64,000 nucleotides of DNA, from the NCBI GenBank assembly GCA_039028615.1, contig JBCCHT010000003.1, positions 224,001 through 288,000 of the forward strand, given 5' to 3'. This DNA comes from Myxococcota bacterium. Its GTDB lineage: Bacteria; Myxococcota_A; Polyangia; Nannocystales; Nannocystaceae. A model generated the notes under the pieces. The model saw only the letters and a list, made by a program, of their open reading frames with translations, was not told the DNA's origin and did not search any database. Numbering within the stretch: position 1 is the stretch's first letter; each line of letters opens with the position of its first letter. Positions 30,749 through 36,668 of this stretch are shown here, piece by piece. Position numbers and translations under genes: made by a program.

Positions 30749-31078
30749 GGCTCGTCGTTCTTCCTTGGCGCGACACCACCCGTCGCTCCAGCGTCGCAGC
30801 GCACCTCGGGGGGGGGTCGTCCGCGGATCTCGACGTCGGTGGGGTGACTCGAGGTCCGCGGCCGACTCGAGGTCCCGTTTCCCGTGGGGTGGGTCGGGGC
30901 TCGGCGTCTGCGGCTGGCGGGCAGCGTCGTTACGCCAGGTCCTTTCCGCGACTGACCTCGGCATTACATCGGCGCGTGACTTTTTATCGACGTTTTGTCG
31001 CGGTTATGGCTGTGCCTAGAACACTTCGCGGTGCACACGAAGGTGCAGGTGCGACAGGGGATCGGGCGCGATGGCATC

Positions 31079-33877
31079 ATGCGTTCGATGTTCCGCCCCC
31101 TGACTCTCGCCTTGTTCTCGATGCTGTCGTTGGCGTGCAACCGTGGCTCGGATGCTGCGTCCGACGGCGGCAAGCCGACGGCCGAGGTCACCCCCGCGTC
31201 CGCGGCCAAGCTCGTCGGTGCTCCGGCGCCGGCCGTGCCCGAGCCGACGGCCAAGCTACTCGCGGCGGTGGGGGAGGGGGCGCCCGCCGTCGTGGTGCTG
31301 CGCGACGAGGCGATCGCGACGCTCAACGAACGCTTGCCGAAGTTGCTGCCCGCGCCTGCGCTGGCCGAGATGGCGGAGCTGACCGGAGCGGTGAACGGGG
31401 TCGACGTACTCGCGAAGCTGGCCGAGACCCTCGACCTGCCCGTACGCAAGGCGGAGCTGAAGGGCCGCGACCCGGCGCGCCCGATCGTGGTGTCGGCGTT
31501 CGAGTCTCCGGTCTCGGGGCCTCCGGGCATGGCGGTGGCGCTCATGCCCGTGGTCGATGGGCACCAGCTGCCGTTGCGTCATCAGGTGGTGCTGCCCGCC
31601 AAGGACGTGACCGCGCTGCTCGGGAGCATGCGGGCGTGGCTGCCCGCCGAGGACACGATCGAGCGCCCCGAGCTGGTCAAAGGCCTCGAAGGCGCGGTCG
31701 GGCTCGAGCTGAAGCGACGCTGGCCGCTGCAGACCTTCATCGCGCTGGTGCCAGAAGACGGACACCTGCGGGTGGTGCTGCTGCACGAGGGCCGGGGAAT
31801 CGACAGCGCATCGGAGCTTCGGTCCCTGGTCGATGTGAAGGTCGGTGACCTTAGCGACACCCCGGCCCTGCGCCATGCGGGACGCGACGAGCATGCGCTC
31901 GCGGTGCTGGTGCGGCCGTGGCATCTGCGGTCGCTCGGGGTCTGGACGGGGCTCAACCAGACGATGCTGGCGGTGGACACCGTCGGCCCCGATCAGCGCT
32001 GGATGGCGATGACGCGCGGGACGGCGATCACGGCCACGGCCGAGGTCTTGAGCCCCGACGACCAGGCGGAGTTCGACGACTGGTCTTTCGCGATGTCGGC
32101 CGACGCCGACTCCCTGCGCCTGACCAGCGTCGCCAGCCTCACCCCCACCGGGCGGAAGATCTGGGACGCCGCCGCCACGAAGCCGGTCGCCGCGCCCCGG
32201 CTTCGCAAAGAGGTCGATGCCTCGCTCACCGTCGCGCTGGACATCGCGGCCGCGCTGGGCGAAGCGAAGGGGCACACCCTGCGGGAGGGATCGTTGGGAG
32301 ACCTGGCGCGGACCTTCCAGAACTGCGGCGTGACCTGCCCGATGTTCAGCGCGCTGCGTTGGCCGGCCTCTGCGGTACGGACCCTCGCCCCAGAGGTCAG
32401 CAGGACGGGCACCGGGGTCGCGAGCGCACAGCTGGTGATGCCCTCCTCGAGCGAGCCGGCTCGGGTCGCGGTCGCACTGGTCGGCGATGACCTGCCCGCC
32501 GCCGAGGTACTGAAAGGGGCAGTCGGAGTGCTGGCGCGCCCGGGTGCGGCCGCCAAAGTCGAGGAAGGAACGCACGCGGGGCATCCGGCCTTGTTGGTCG
32601 GCAACGGCATCGAGCCCGCCACCATCTTCGAGCTGGGCGCCGAGTCGCCCGAGCCTCCGGCGCTGCTGCGGGCGCAGGGGCGCCTGCCCGCGGAGCTCGG
32701 GGGCGGCTCGCTCCGCTCCGCCATGCACCGAGCTGGCCCCGCGCTGACCTTCGAGTTGGTGTTCGGCCCCGGCAAGCTCCGTTCGTTGCTCGACTACTCG
32801 GCGGCGACCTGGGACTCGCCGCTGGGATCGGGAGAGGCCACCAAGGCCAGTCGCTGTCTGCACGAGCTGGCGTGGGTTCTCGTGGACGACGTCAACTCCA
32901 TCGCGATGGTGGCGGTCGACCAGCGGGCCACCACGGCCGTGACCGCGGCCGGCAAGATCGGGCCTCTGGTCACCTGTGCCGCCGAAGACCCCCAGCTCGC
33001 AGAGGCGGCACGAGGCTTGGCCTCGCTGATGACCGCGACGATGGCCGGGGCCTTGCTCGAGGTCCCCGACTACCGCGCGGCTCGGGCGGTGTTGCAGACG
33101 GGGTGCCCCGAAGGACGCTCCGACGGGCCCGCGTGCGAGCGACTCGCCGCCATGGCCGATGTCGCGATCCCCACGCTGCAGCAATTCTCGGTGCCCGAGC
33201 AGTGCCGCCCCGAGTACGACCCCGGCTTCGGTATGCCCGTGGTGGTCAACAGCGACGGAATCTTCATCGCGGGGCGCAAGGTCGCCGCCTCGAGCTCGGC
33301 CATTGCGGCGGCGGTGGTCGAGCAGATGAGCATGGACGGACGCAGTGAGAAGGTCGGGTCCACGCTCGCCCTGTGGGTCGAAGGGTCGTTGCCGTTTTCC
33401 GTGGTCGAACCCGTCGTCGCGGCGGCGGCGAGCCTGGACTCCGAGCTGGGGGCGGTGATCAACGACGAGTCCGGTAAGGCGATGCGCGTCGGGTGGGCGC
33501 GAGAGTGGCCGAAGACGGTGAGCATCGACTGGAAGGTCGACCCGACCTACGTGCCCGAAAAACGCTTCGGTGGCGGGCTCTATGACCCCGAGGAGCGAGC
33601 GCCCGGCTCTACCGGGCCCAAGGTGTCGCACACCCTGCTGCAGACCCGCGGCGGCTTGGTGGTGGTGCCTCCCGGGGGAACGACGCTGGCCGTGCCCAAC
33701 TCGTCGGCGCTGTCCGCCTATGTCGACGCGGAGCAATCCGCGGCCGGGCCGGGGCGGACGGTGCAGCTGACGTGGAAGGTCGCGCCCGATGTGCCCTGGA
33801 GCGAAGTGGCCGAGGTGCTCACGCAAACCTGCACCATTTTCGGTGCGGTGGTGCAGACTCCCGCGGGCACTCCATGA
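31079..33877 (+). CDS. Large hypothetical lipoprotein, possible ExbD/TolR-like segments at the C-terminus
   Basis: Lipobox LSLAC; long GC3-biased ORF; LPFSVVEPVV and APDVPWSEVAEVL resemble ExbD periplasmic motifs (weak). Confidence 0.75.
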   Translation: MRSMFRPLTLALFSMLSLACNRGSDAASDGGKPTAEVTPASAAKLVGAPAPAVPEPTAKLLAAVGEGAPAVVVLRDEAIATLNERLPKLLPAPALAEMAELTGAVNGVDVLAKLAETLDLPVRKAELKGRDPARPIVVSAFESPVSGPPGMAVALMPVVDGHQLPLRHQVVLPAKDVTALLGSMRAWLPAEDTIERPELVKGLEGAVGLELKRRWPLQTFIALVPEDGHLRVVLLHEGRGIDSASELRSLVDVKVGDLSDTPALRHAGRDEHALAVLVRPWHLRSLGVWTGLNQTMLAVDTVGPDQRWMAMTRGTAITATAEVLSPDDQAEFDDWSFAMSADADSLRLTSVASLTPTGRKIWDAAATKPVAAPRLRKEVDASLTVALDIAAALGEAKGHTLREGSLGDLARTFQNCGVTCPMFSALRWPASAVRTLAPEVSRTGTGVASAQLVMPSSSEPARVAVALVGDDLPAAEVLKGAVGVLARPGAAAKVEEGTHAGHPALLVGNGIEPATIFELGAESPEPPALLRAQGRLPAELGGGSLRSAMHRAGPALTFELVFGPGKLRSLLDYSAATWDSPLGSGEATKASRCLHELAWVLVDDVNSIAMVAVDQRATTAVTAAGKIGPLVTCAAEDPQLAEAARGLASLMTATMAGALLEVPDYRAARAVLQTGCPEGRSDGPACERLAAMADVAIPTLQQFSVPEQCRPEYDPGFGMPVVVNSDGIFIAGRKVAASSSAIAAAVVEQMSMDGRSEKVGSTLALWVEGSLPFSVVEPVVAAAASLDSELGAVINDESGKAMRVGWAREWPKTVSIDWKVDPTYVPEKRFGGGLYDPEERAPGSTGPKVSHTLLQTRGGLVVVPPGGTTLAVPNSSALSAYVDAEQSAAGPGRTVQLTWKVAPDVPWSEVAEVLTQTCTIFGAVVQTPAGTP

Positions 33878-33983
33878 CGCGGTGACTCATCGTCGCGCCT
33901 TCGGGCCCGATGCACTCGGTCGGCGATCATGAACAGGTCGCGGGCGCACGAGTCGTCGGGCTCGATTATTTTCGGCTTCGCAT

Positions 33984-34011
33984 TTGACAAACCAATCCCA
34001 TTGCGTAAGTT
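33984..34011 (+). promoter_or_regulatory. Sigma70-type promoter of the leader-peptide/tRNA operon
   Basis: Consensus TTGACA (33984-33989), 16-bp spacer, TAAGTT (34006-34011) in an AT-rich patch. Confidence 0.75.
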
Positions 34012-34031
34012 GGCTCGACAGGAAGACGACA

Positions 34032-34145
34032 ATGGTTGCCCACGAGTCCCTCGCCCACGTTTTCGAGTTCTGTCACGCCACGGCGTACGACAGTTCGTCT
34101 TCGTATGCGTACGTGCTCGGCAGTCGATCGTCATCTCGCTGCTAG
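34032..34145 (+). CDS. Putative Ser/Tyr-rich leader peptide, 37 aa (MVAHESLAHVFEFCHATAYDSSSSYAYVLGSRSSSRC)
   Basis: AGGAAG SD at 34020-34025, ATG 34032, TAG 34143-34145; 9 Ser and 3 Tyr codons; lies between the promoter and the Ser/Tyr tRNA array; below the ORF-track size cutoff. Confidence 0.72.
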   Translation: MVAHESLAHVFEFCHATAYDSSSSYAYVLGSRSSSRC

Positions 34146-34182
34146 AGCACGTCGTGCACGACGGCCACGGGCCGTTTCGTTC
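34111..34182 (+). promoter_or_regulatory. Putative transcription attenuator (mutually exclusive hairpins)
   Basis: Hairpin A 34111-34152 (ACGTGCTC-GGCAG...CTGCT-A-GAGCACGT); hairpin B 34150-34163 (CGTCG-TGCA-CGACG); terminator-like hairpin C 34160-34176 (GACGGCC-ACG-GGCCGTT) running into TTTCGTT. Confidence 0.55.
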
Positions 34183-34279
34183 GCGTCCCCGCCACGGGTG
34201 ACGTAGCCGGACTCGTTCGCGCTGCGCCCGATGGGTCGTCGGTCGTCGAGCGGGCCTCGTCGTGCCCAAAAACCAAAGA

Positions 34280-34363
34280 GGAGGGGTGGCCGAGTGGTAA
34301 GGCAGCGGCTTGCTACGCCGTCGTCTGGTAATGCCAGCGTGGGTTCGACTCCCACCCCCTCCG
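34280..34363 (+). tRNA. tRNA-Ser(GCT)
   Basis: Acceptor GGAGGGG/CCCCTCC, G73; anticodon arm GCGGC-TTGCTAC-GCCGT; long variable arm; GTGGG-TTCGACT-CCCAC; CCA not encoded. Confidence 0.93.
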
Positions 34364-34369
34364 CTCCAT

Positions 34370-34456
34370 GGAAGGTTGGCCGAGCGGTAAGGCACTCGCT
34401 TGGAAAGCGACGGTCCGGTCGAGAGATCGGCGGGGGTTCGACTCCCTCACCTTCCG
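34370..34456 (+). tRNA. tRNA-Ser(GGA)
   Basis: Acceptor GGAAGGT/ACCTTCC, G73; TCGC-TTGGAAA-GCGA; long variable arm; TTCGACT loop; followed by CC only. Confidence 0.92.
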
Positions 34457-34458
34457 CC

Positions 34459-34541
34459 GGAGGGTTCGGCATTGGCAGGCCAAGCCGCCTTGAACGCGGT
34501 GGGTCCTTCGGGGCCTGGGGGTTCGACTCCCTCACCCTCCG
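34459..34541 (+). tRNA. tRNA-Ser(TGA), atypical D-arm
   Basis: Acceptor GGAGGGT/ACCCTCC, G73; GCCGC-CTTGAAC-GCGGT; variable arm with TTCG loop; TTCGACT loop. Confidence 0.88.
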
Positions 34542-34550
34542 CCCTCATCG

Positions 34551-34636
34551 GGAAGGAATGTCATTTGGTTTGACGCGCAGTTTCGAAAACTGTCGGGGTA
34601 CTGCCCCAGGGGGTTCGATTCCCTCTCCTTCCGCCA
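34551..34636 (+). tRNA. tRNA-Ser(CGA), atypical (A at position 8)
   Basis: Acceptor GGAAGGA/TCCTTCC, G73, CCA; D-stem GTCA/TGAC; GCAGT-TTCGAAA-ACTGT; variable arm GGGG/CCCC; TTCGATT loop. Confidence 0.88.
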
Positions 34637-34637
34637 C

Positions 34638-34723
34638 CCGCGGGACGCCCATTCGGTAGGGCAGCGGACTGTAAATCCGTGGCGCTTTGGCGCATGCAGG
34701 TTCGAATCCTGCCCCGCGGACCA
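34638..34723 (+). tRNA. tRNA-Tyr(GTA) with C1-G72 and a long variable arm
   Basis: Acceptor CCGCGGG/CCCGCGG, A73, CCA; D-stem GCCC/GGGC; GCGGA-CTGTAAA-TCCGT; variable arm GCGC-TTTG-GCGC; GCAGG-TTCGAAT-CCTGC. Confidence 0.92.
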
Positions 34724-34991: not shown

Positions 34992-36668
34992 TCAGCGGGG
35001 TCGACAGGCACGAGTGACGAAGATGTCGGCATCGCCCGCGTTGGGCCCTCCGAGGTCTCCGCGAGAGAACCCGGCCGCGTAGATCTCACCCTGGGGACCG
35101 ATCTCGACGGCCCGAAGCGTGTCGGAGGCAGGTGTACCGAGCAGCTCGACCCACTGCAGCTCGCCCTCGGGGTCGAGCGCGACGATGCTCGCGTCTTCTT
35201 CCCCGACCACGATGCCGTCGCCGAAGTCTCCGAGGCTGTGCCCGACGACGTAGACCGTGCCCTCCGCGTCTACGGCGATGTCGAGGGCGACGTCGTCGAC
35301 GCTGGTGCCGAACTGCGAAGACCACTGCTTTTGTCCGTCGGGGTCGAACTTGACCACGAAGTTGTCCTGGCCTCCGAGGGGGTCCTGCAGGTCGAAAGAC
35401 CCGAGGGTGGTCCCGGTGACGTACACGTTGTTGTCCGCGTCCACGGCGACGCGGGCGGGGTTGTCGTCGGCTTCCCCGCCGACCTGCGCCGCCCACAGCA
35501 GCACGCCATCACCGTCGAACTTGGCGACGAAGGCGTCGCTGCCGCCCCACGCCGTTCGCCCTTCGAAGGACTCGCCCGTGAGCCCGGCGACGATGATGTC
35601 GTCGTTGCCGTCGACGGCCAAGCCGTACGCGACCTGGAACGAGCGGCCACCGAGCTGTCGATTCCAAAGCTCGGTGCCGTCGGTGTCGAGCTTGATGAGC
35701 AGCATGTCGGACGAGCCCGTGTTCGGCGTGCCGTCGTAGCTGCCCGTGGTGTAGCCGGCGAGATAGCCCCGGCCGTTGCTGCTCAGCCCCACCGACTGGA
35801 TGCGGTCTTCCAGCTCGGTGCCGAACTGGAGGGTCCATTCGACGTCTGCGCCCGCGTCATAGCGGACCGCGATCCCGTCCGACATCCCCAGGTGGGTGTG
35901 GCCCTCGAGCGCGCTCTCGGTTCGGCCCGGCACGAGAAAGCTGCCGTCGGCGTCGACCGCGATGTCCTCGCTCATGTCGAAGAGCATCGTGCCGAGCTGG
36001 CGGGAGAACAGCGGGGTGCCGTCGGGCTGGAACTTGCTGACGAAGAGGTCGGAGTCGCCGGCGGAGGCGTTGCCGTCGAGCGGGCCTTCGACGCGACCGG
36101 CGATGTACAGGTCACCCTCGTCGTCGATGGCGATGCCGCGGGCCTCGTCGGAGCCGGGCGTGCCGTACTGGATCCGCCAGCTGTCGCACGCCGGAGCACA
36201 GGTGTCGACGTAGCAGTCGGTGGACTCGCAGTCGCCATCGTCGAGACAGGCTTGGCCCTGCGCGCAGGGCCCACAACCGCCTCCGCAGTCGACGTCGGTC
36301 TCGTCGCCGCTGAGCAGGCCATCGTCGCAGCTGGGCAGGGCGCAGGCGCTGGTGCAGTCGTCGGTCTCGTCGTCGTTGCCGTCGTCGCACTGCTCGCCGG
36401 GGTCGACGACTCCGTCGCCGCAGGTGCCATCCCCGGTGACGTCGGCCTCGGTCTCGAGACCGTCCCCACTATCGTCGGTGAGGACGGATGCTGTCGTGCC
36501 CTCCGACGTCTCCGCGGTCCCCGAGCTGTCGTCCTCGGCGGGCGTGGGCCCCTCGGCGTCGGTGAAGCATCCGCTGGCACTCATCACCCCCGCGAGTGCG
36601 ACGGTGGCCATTCCACGCAGACGTGAGGGGAGCAGATCTTCGAGGTCGAGGCTCGTCGTGGTTTTCAT
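34992..36668 (-). CDS. Lipoprotein with myxococcal Cys-rich repeat (DUF4215-like) and SBBP beta-propeller repeats
   Basis: Lipobox ASGC; CGDGVVDPGEQCDDGN; ETDVDCGG; repeated QxGT...D.A..IAVD..G.VYVxG units. Confidence 0.88.
   Translation of the reverse strand: MKTTTSLDLEDLLPSRLRGMATVALAGVMSASGCFTDAEGPTPAEDDSSGTAETSEGTTASVLTDDSGDGLETEADVTGDGTCGDGVVDPGEQCDDGNDDETDDCTSACALPSCDDGLLSGDETDVDCGGGCGPCAQGQACLDDGDCESTDCYVDTCAPACDSWRIQYGTPGSDEARGIAIDDEGDLYIAGRVEGPLDGNASAGDSDLFVSKFQPDGTPLFSRQLGTMLFDMSEDIAVDADGSFLVPGRTESALEGHTHLGMSDGIAVRYDAGADVEWTLQFGTELEDRIQSVGLSSNGRGYLAGYTTGSYDGTPNTGSSDMLLIKLDTDGTELWNRQLGGRSFQVAYGLAVDGNDDIIVAGLTGESFEGRTAWGGSDAFVAKFDGDGVLLWAAQVGGEADDNPARVAVDADNNVYVTGTTLGSFDLQDPLGGQDNFVVKFDPDGQKQWSSQFGTSVDDVALDIAVDAEGTVYVVGHSLGDFGDGIVVGEEDASIVALDPEGELQWVELLGTPASDTLRAVEIGPQGEIYAAGFSRGDLGGPNAGDADIFVTRACRPR

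Follow-up and report, generated by a model that had tools for sequence, protein, structure and literature searches.

The stretch of DNA analysed here, referred to throughout as the window, comprises 64,000 nucleotides (nt) of the genome of a bacterium of the family Nannocystaceae (G000 in our numbering). On its forward strand, at positions 33984-34723, lies a compact unit in which a promoter and a short open reading frame (ORF) rich in serine (Ser) and tyrosine (Tyr) codons precede five transfer RNA (tRNA) genes for the same two amino acids. An original prediction, made from the letters of the window, proposed that this ORF is a leader peptide through which a set of back-up tRNAs responds to the shortage of its own kind. 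On re-reading the sequence the promoter, the AGGAAG motif, the 37-codon ORF and the five tRNA genes were all found as described, the last with ARAGORN, and the codon list proved accurate as given, 11 of the last 19 sense codons being Ser or Tyr. The features of the unit and of its upstream border are as follows, with the 12 loci mentioned being the related loci described further below.

33949..33974, + strand: terminator-like hairpin with a T-rich tail (6-bp stem at 33949-33964, then ATTATTTTCG)
33984..34011, + strand: sigma-70-type promoter (-35 TTGACA at 33984-33989, 16-nt spacer, -10 TAAGTT at 34006-34011)
34020..34025, + strand: purine-rich, Shine-Dalgarno-like AGGAAG, ending 6 nt ahead of the ATG
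34032..34145, + strand: leader ORF of 37 codons plus TAG (ATG at 34032, TAG at 34143-34145)
34086..34112, + strand: first Ser/Tyr codon block (TAC .. AGT TCG TCT TCG TAT .. TAC), kept in the codon alignment
34111..34152, + strand: conserved hairpin (5' arm 34111-34123, 3' arm 34139-34152)
34146..34279, + strand: GC-rich spacer of 134 nt from the leader to the first tRNA gene
34161..34175, + strand: weak terminator-like hairpin in the spacer with the tail TTCGTTCG, the candidate extending to 34183
34280..34364, + strand: tRNA-Ser (GCT), ARAGORN, Rfam 61.6 bits, leads the array in 12 of 12 loci
34370..34458, + strand: tRNA-Ser (GGA), ARAGORN, Rfam 52.1 bits
34458..34544, + strand: tRNA-Ser (TGA) with an unusual D arm, ARAGORN, kept in 10 loci
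34551..34636, + strand: tRNA-Ser (CGA) with an unusual D arm and encoded CCA, ARAGORN, in 8 loci with compensated stems
34638..34723, + strand: tRNA-Tyr (GTA) with a long variable arm, C1-G72, A73 and encoded CCA, ARAGORN, 56.9 bits

The hairpin ahead of the promoter looks like the end of the upstream gene's transcript, and since it closes that gene the segment 33984-34723 looks like a separate transcription unit. The promoter was not called by a generic promoter scan because its -10 hexamer matches the consensus at only three of six positions. The first Ser/Tyr codon block abuts the 5' arm of the conserved hairpin on its 5' side and runs into it. The five tRNA genes are separated by 5, -1, 6 and 1 nt, Ser-GGA and Ser-TGA overlapping by one base, and two of them encode CCA. 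Three of the five pass the Rfam tRNA cut-off, and the best Rfam match of Ser-TGA and Ser-CGA is to the tRNA-Sec model with 43.1 and 41.2 bits, below the cut-off of 47. No other RNA family of Rfam scores between 33000 and 35500.

The array duplicates tRNAs that the genome already has. G000 (12.27 Mb in 94 contigs, 68.3% G+C, 86 tRNA genes by ARAGORN) holds a second copy of every anticodon in the array, with canonical Ser-GCT on contig C17, Ser-TGA on C11, Ser-CGA and Ser-GGA on C83 and Tyr-GTA within a Thr-Tyr-Gly-Thr operon on C6. Identity between the array tRNAs and these counterparts is 65-70%, so that the description of the array as a redundant, back-up set stands. One seryl-tRNA and one tyrosyl-tRNA synthetase score above their family cut-offs in G000. 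Across the 12 related loci the stems of the array tRNAs are kept through compensatory changes, which argues that these are maintained genes and not decaying copies. The array tRNA-Tyr carries a C1-G72 first pair and A73 in 11 of 11 loci, with compensated changes lower in the stem, and the canonical tRNA-Tyr on C6 has G1-C72; C1-G72 serves as the tyrosine identity pair in archaea and eukaryotes and is seldom seen in bacteria.

The leader in the window contains nine Ser and three Tyr codons, comprising all six Ser codon types and both Tyr codons. Of the 36 codons that follow the ATG, 12 are Ser or Tyr, where the genome average is 8.0% (Ser 6.0% and Tyr 2.0%, from 889 long ORFs); the binomial probability is 1.4e-5 for the best of three ATG-initiated ORFs. 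When the 12 leaders described below are pooled, Ser and Tyr account for 129 of 439 codons (29.4%) in the frame of the ORF, and for 49 and 54 of 439 (11-12%) in the other two frames of the same DNA. The codons ending in A or T had been called uncommon and indeed are, with genome-wide shares of 3.2% for TCT, 2.5% for TCA and 3.1% for AGT among Ser codons and of 16% for TAT among Tyr codons. They are over-used in the leaders, whose 93 Ser codons include AGT 15 times, TCT 15 times and TCA 6 times and in which 22 of 36 Tyr codons are TAT. Three positions following GGC AGT CGA are mostly Ser with a codon that varies among TCG, TCC, TCT, TCA and AGC; they form the unpaired loop of the conserved hairpin, and the replacements there include changes from TCN to AGC.

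A DNA search of 41 relatives returned homologous arrays and an unexpected conserved patch within the ORF. A profile built from eight leader translations was then searched in 73 Nannocystaceae genomes and matched nine of them at one place per genome, namely all six genomes of the genus of the window, two of eight in a second genus and the single genome of a third. A degenerate DNA pattern made from the conserved core recovered the same species among genome contigs and matched four metagenome contigs, three of which are genuine. The fourth (L048) is a chance match with neither ORF nor tRNA. The nine genomes and three metagenome contigs give 12 distinct loci, and all 12 have a TTGAC(A/G)-16-TAnnnT promoter, an ATG that follows the -10 hexamer by 9-22 nt, a frame of 33-39 codons with its stop, and an array led by Ser-GCT that begins 73-340 nt past the leader. 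Shine-Dalgarno-like purine runs are similar in the orthologues of the same genus. A conserved, Ser/Tyr-rich small ORF upstream of homologous arrays, the check proposed with the original prediction, was thus found at every locus.

Six loci keep the tRNA order of the window and one more is cut by the contig end after Ser-CGA. The remainder vary: Tyr and Ser-CGA are swapped in one locus, Ser-CGA is missing from two (L006 and L039), one combines Ser-GCT and Tyr with a second Ser tRNA, and one (L009) has Ser-GCT and Tyr only. The flanks, compared over some 0.8-1.6 kb as far as contig ends permit (22 nt for one downstream flank), are homologous between L006 and L039 only, which belong to one genus. 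As the flanks differ and the module is kept, promoter, leader and array appear to have been inherited or moved as one block. In the phage collection just 44-nt tRNA-Ser matches were found, in seven Brevundimonas phages, and a likeness limited to 44 nt of a tRNA-Ser gives no sign of a phage origin. One locus, L005 (G002:C228), has a 340-nt spacer two to four times longer than that of the other loci, the last ~90 nt of which, before Ser-GCT, consist of repeated similar short units.

The conserved patch is also a structural element. The 5' arm of the hairpin at 34111-34123 comprises the most conserved codons, including the essentially invariant GGC AGT CGA. The last three Ser codons lie in the loop, and the stop codon falls within the 3' arm at 34139-34152. 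The hairpin in the window has a folding energy of -27 kcal/mol and a z-score of -1.8, and the mean z-score over the 12 loci is -1.9 relative to dinucleotide shuffles. Core-to-stop pairing comparable to that of the window is the minimum free energy fold in about nine of the 12 loci, and L006 has changes on both arms of the hairpin. The best pairing partner of the start-codon region is the same conserved core in eight of 12 loci. As the core is predicted to pair both with the stop region and with the start region it would have two competing partners.

The same organisation was looked for at the other tRNA clusters of G000. A scan of the 450 nt in front of each cluster for short ORFs enriched in the amino acids of the cluster itself returned six clusters besides the Ser/Tyr unit and brought the number of leader-bearing clusters to seven. 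The six are:

C23: Thr-Phe-Asn-Lys-Lys cluster, leader-bearing
C43: Met-Phe cluster, leader-bearing
C27, locus L072: seven-gene cluster (Ser, Ala, Trp, Cys, Val, Ile and Ser anticodons), leader-bearing
C27: Asp-His cluster, leader-bearing
C9:257702-257854, locus L073: Cys-Gln cluster with an upstream Cys/Gln-rich ORF, its own promoter and another scaffold
C43:37444-37639, locus L074: Arg-Leu cluster with an upstream Arg/Leu-rich ORF, its own promoter and another scaffold

When all 13 amino-acid sets were scored on each of the 13 multi-gene clusters, the cluster's own set ranked first in six of the seven leader-bearing clusters and second for Cys-Gln, a diagonal that is inflated by the way the clusters were noticed (see below). 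Under a strict p<0.01 the own set was best in five of 13 clusters (binomial 2e-3). None of the other six clusters reached p<0.01 with its own set, including the tufB-type Thr-Tyr-Gly-Thr operon (C6) and the canonical Ser-Ser pair (C83); no ATG-initiated ORF was found upstream of Pro-Arg (C14) or Gln-Glu (C13), and nothing below p 0.01 upstream of Glu-Lys (C22). Pro-Pro (C1) does have an upstream ORF and was not counted, its own set ranking fifth of 13. Of the 86 tRNA genes, 25 belong to the seven clusters, which serve 17 amino acids and contain no anticodon that lacks a copy outside them. In five of the modules 20 of 53 cognate codons are rare codons ending in A or T, compared with 5.8 expected.

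Four of the leaders in G000 share a scaffold that consists of a promoter, a hairpin in the 5' untranslated region, a start of ATG RAM CGY and an invariant end of TGT TGA GCG, and constitute a second leader family:

G000:C23:7260-7361: second-family leader, locus L065
G000:C43:29925-30008: second-family leader, locus L071
G000:C27:159114-159197: second-family leader, locus L069
G000:C27:172464-172565: second-family leader, locus L072

Pattern searches added members in G002 (three), G005 (two), G019, G022 and G074, for a total of 12 modules in six genomes. A first, strict 14-nt pattern gave 13 matches against nine for its reversed control, and its matches were kept only if profile and downstream tRNAs confirmed them; a two-anchor pattern gave 10 matches against none for the reversed control. 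With the six initial scaffold residues and the final residue excluded, the residues cognate to the downstream array number 11/24, 7/18, 7/18, 9/21, 12/24, 9/24, 4/24, 9/25, 15/23, 15/24, 16/24 and 4/41. These cognate fractions add up to 5.11, compared with 2.54 +/- 0.46 for shuffled arrays, and nominally, in a test that overstates significance, none of 20,000 shuffles reached 5.11. Within the Thr/Phe/Asn/Lys group the arrays that bear a tRNA-Met (G002, G005) have leaders with four and three Met codons after the initiator, and the G000 version, with no tRNA-Met in its array, has one. Paraliomyxa miuraensis SMH-27-4, one of the species recovered with the degenerate pattern, carries both leader families, with a Ser/Tyr module and two modules of the second family. 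The match between leader codons and array anticodons that the original prediction had suggested as a check holds across paralogous modules; within the Ser/Tyr family the Ser codon types of the leader do not track the loss of single Ser tRNAs.

The second family also shows overlapping helices. A 9-bp helix joins its codons 1-4 to the stop codon plus the next seven bases; 96.3% of 81 cells are paired, with two compensated pairs, compared with 23-49% in slid controls. In each of the 12 modules the 3' strand of this helix is also the first arm of a long hairpin whose other arm lies downstream and which thereby overlaps the start-to-stop helix; no U run follows the long hairpin.

From what is observed, namely the anatomy of the unit, its conservation, the redundancy of its tRNAs, the match of codons to arrays and the hairpins, we infer that the ORF is translated, in which direction it switches, which step it controls and what triggers it in nature. 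The amino-acid make-up of the frame changes with the tRNAs behind it, and its translation is on that account read as reporting on those tRNAs. We consider it fairly likely that the translated leader acts as a sensor of cognate tRNA supply which gates the spare tRNAs in a negative feedback, these bacteria probably making the back-up tRNAs in response to ribosomes that stall because such tRNAs are scarce. Overall the leader-matched interpretation is supported by the conserved ORF at all 12 loci, by paralogous leaders that follow their arrays and by the redundancy of the tRNAs.

In this scheme RNA polymerase would start a few bases ahead of the ORF and a ribosome would load at once. With ample charged tRNA the ribosome would read the Ser and Tyr codons fast, reach the stop codon and leave, after which the core-to-stop hairpin would form and the fold of the spacer would give little mature tRNA. 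With charged Ser- or Tyr-tRNA in short supply it would linger on the Ser/Tyr codons that border or enter the hairpin, and by blocking the hairpin would let the spacer refold, so that more precursor, or a more stable one, would reach the tRNA genes. The new tRNAs would restore decoding and the unit would fall silent again, which amounts to negative feedback on tRNA supply. The controlled step may be a non-canonical or Rho-dependent terminator, processing or decay. As an extra tRNA helps only if tRNA, and not the amino acid, is limiting, loss of tRNA fits as a trigger better than starvation does, with toxins, phage and the cell's own defence nucleases as candidate causes of such a loss.

A more far-reaching reading, which we offer tentatively and regard as possible rather than probable, is that some Nannocystaceae possess a modular, inducible second tRNA set (here the 25 genes in seven clusters for 17 amino acids) that is wired through leaders and replaces exactly those tRNAs whose decoding fails. 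The altered replacements, in the first pair of tRNA-Tyr and the D arms of the tRNAs-Ser, may then escape tRNA-cutting toxins of competitors, phages or defence systems, and the whole would be a new class of ribosome-mediated tRNA feedback without a classical terminator.

A number of observations weigh against a translated, stalling-controlled leader. In five loci, from other genera or contigs, only 9-13 nt lie between the -10 hexamer and the ATG, and several orthologues have no Shine-Dalgarno sequence; initiation in such loci would be near-leaderless. The arrays of L006 and L039, which have no Ser-CGA, and that of L009, which has none of GGA, TGA and CGA, are still preceded by leaders with TCG or TCT codons. 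A simple scan found no hairpin with at least four T in the next 9 nt in 10 of 12 spacers, and a terminator scan of the window called none within the spacer at 34146-34279; a classical terminator appears to be missing or non-canonical. The spacers (73-340 nt) cannot be aligned between orthologues, and this together with the negative scan leaves no conserved terminator/antiterminator pair definable. In the second family two modules match their arrays weakly (4/24 and 4/41), Thr codons are part of the scaffold regardless of the array, and the modules are related by descent, so that significance is overstated by the shuffle tests. Moreover, the enrichment by which the seven G000 clusters were ranked is the one that first drew attention to them. 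At the codon level the synonymous share of codon differences is 0.18 in frame and 0.16 and 0.11 out of frame, and the core is kept at synonymous sites (GGC in 12 of 12 leaders, AGT and CGA each in 11 of 12), which points to a constraint on the RNA that could exist without translation.

These last points are what would be expected if the leader were an RNA-only element, a signal for processing, folding or stability whose open frame and Ser/Tyr richness are by-products of nucleotide constraint. Besides the conserved core and its hairpins, the weak codon-position pattern fits such an element (759, 955 and 892 differences at the three positions among the 12 leaders, by which the frame is poorly discriminated), as do TCGTC-like strings that recur in several frames around the locus. 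We nevertheless think it quite unlikely, as it leaves unexplained the ATG and stop conserved at 12 of 12 loci, the retention of Ser through TCN-to-AGC changes in an unpaired loop, the confinement of the enrichment to one frame and, above all, the agreement of leader amino acids with arrays across unrelated amino-acid sets. A mixed signal of codons and helices would be expected of a regulatory leader in which only some codons and helices matter, and alone is no proof of translation. The same agreement tells against the possibility that the product of the ORF is an independently functional small peptide and that shared transcription is its sole tie to the tRNAs, for on that view paralogous leaders would not be expected to shift in composition with their arrays. 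Conservation of the C-terminal third and of a short N-terminal motif speaks for such a peptide, but those conserved parts fall on RNA helices and the N-terminal half is free to vary, four leaders searched against Pfam and NCBIfam matched no family and no conserved partner gene lies nearby, making this very unlikely in our view.

A leader that is translated and senses Ser/Tyr decoding might also work with the opposite sign, smooth translation opening the structure and tying the tRNAs to translational capacity, or at another step such as ribonuclease cleavage or decay of the precursor. The 10 spacers in which no canonical terminator was found are compatible with this, the long hairpins that contain the stop codon could be processing sites, and the sequestration of the start region by pairing links translation to folding with a sign that cannot be read from the sequence. 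Positive feedback on redundant tRNAs would however bring no obvious benefit, rare cognate codons fit a design that stalls easily, and to our knowledge all known cognate-codon leaders (trp, his, pheST) turn on upon stalling, for which reasons we judge this variant unlikely. Chance, finally, has on its side that at 68% GC open frames are common, long open alternative frames being seen here too, and that Ser is common in off-frame translations of GC-rich DNA, which also yields spurious Ser-rich ORFs. It is already contradicted by the comparative data and is hardly credible, given that 12 of 12 loci are conserved within different flanks and that the rule also holds for the Thr/Phe/Asn/Lys, Met/Phe, Asp/His and Cys/Gln clusters, for amino acids that a high GC content does not favour.

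Leader-peptide attenuators control amino-acid operons and pheST (trpL, hisL, leuL, thrL, ilvL, pheL, pheM). Among these pheL appears as a leader in PMC3082878. The Ser/Tyr unit resembles them in having a short, promoter-proximal ORF rich in codons that report on the regulated function, and in a logic by which a stalled ribosome would signal a shortage of charged tRNA; its predicted helices may likewise be alternatives to each other, and its start region may likewise be sequestered by pairing. It differs from them in that the regulated genes are tRNAs and not biosynthetic or synthetase genes, in that no hairpin plus U run was found in 10 of 12 spacers, which sets the unit apart from the terminator-based class, and in that single leaders can be multivalent, for as many as six amino acids, and bear no sequence relation to known leader families. 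The arrangement would thus be a known kind of control, by leader peptide, applied to a new class of genes.

T-box riboswitches are cis-acting leaders that bind uncharged tRNA directly and need no translation. By analogy, the leader proposed here would likewise act in cis, read the state of specific tRNAs and raise the expression of genes that restore the charged pool; Rfam covariance models gave no T-box match between 33000 and 35500 at E values of up to 1. Bacterial tRNA genes are commonly regarded as housekeeping genes under growth-rate control. In the full-text literature outside subscription journals we found no account of leader-ORF control of tRNA genes, and so no precedent for it.

The closest biological parallel is the trn operon of Anabaena sp. 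PCC 7120, an inducible, plasmid-borne L-array with 26 tRNA genes, kept silent as long as translation is intact and induced 100-1000-fold by ribosome-targeting antibiotics (PMC8421152). The tRNAs of that array are functional and aid survival, and its control was proposed to involve a hypothetical labile repressor acting on direct repeats in the promoter; neither 'leader' nor 'attenuat' is used in the text (PMC8421152). The Anabaena operon shares with the arrays reported here a redundant subset of tRNAs that duplicate and have diverged from the housekeeping ones, and differs in being one long array where we find many small modules, each with a codon-matched ORF. Phage and mycobacterial tRNA arrays are regarded as counter-defence (PMC12803027, PMC13096335), and the Septu system is reported to cleave the variable loop of tRNA-Tyr (PMC13096335). 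They too consist of supernumerary, diverged tRNA genes in tight arrays, with tRNA-Tyr as a known target, but the parts of these sources that were available describe no control by a leader ORF, and the array described here is chromosomal and confined to one myxobacterial family.

If the proposed control is true, leader peptides would gain a new class of targets in which the decoding of given codons is answered by the matching tRNAs. It would provide a mechanism for the split between housekeeping and inducible tRNAs, so far shown only in Anabaena, and would explain why arrays of supernumerary, diverged tRNAs are retained. The system is directly testable since the leaders name their tRNAs and the array tRNAs are distinct enough to be probed separately.

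Two loci of related genomes, L008 (G006:C39) and L051 (G022:C266), carry an array of five tRNAs-Ser and no tRNA-Tyr downstream of a different ORF, one of 47 codons with seven for Ser and one for Tyr, which has the string AGT CGA TCG in common with the Ser/Tyr leaders. Two copies of this leader are known and at 86% column identity they are too close for judging. The seven-gene cluster of G000 is bracketed by two 73-nt tRNA-like genes (G000:C27:171191-171263 and 172144-172216) with Ser anticodons (GGA, CGA) and no long variable arm, one of which passes the Rfam tRNA cut-off. In the window the Ser/Tyr unit sits between two large ORFs, neither of which adjoins the module in the other genomes compared: one at 30995-33877 on the + strand, of 960 amino acids, and one at 34992-36668 on the - strand, of 558 amino acids and rich in Cys, Asp and Gly repeats.

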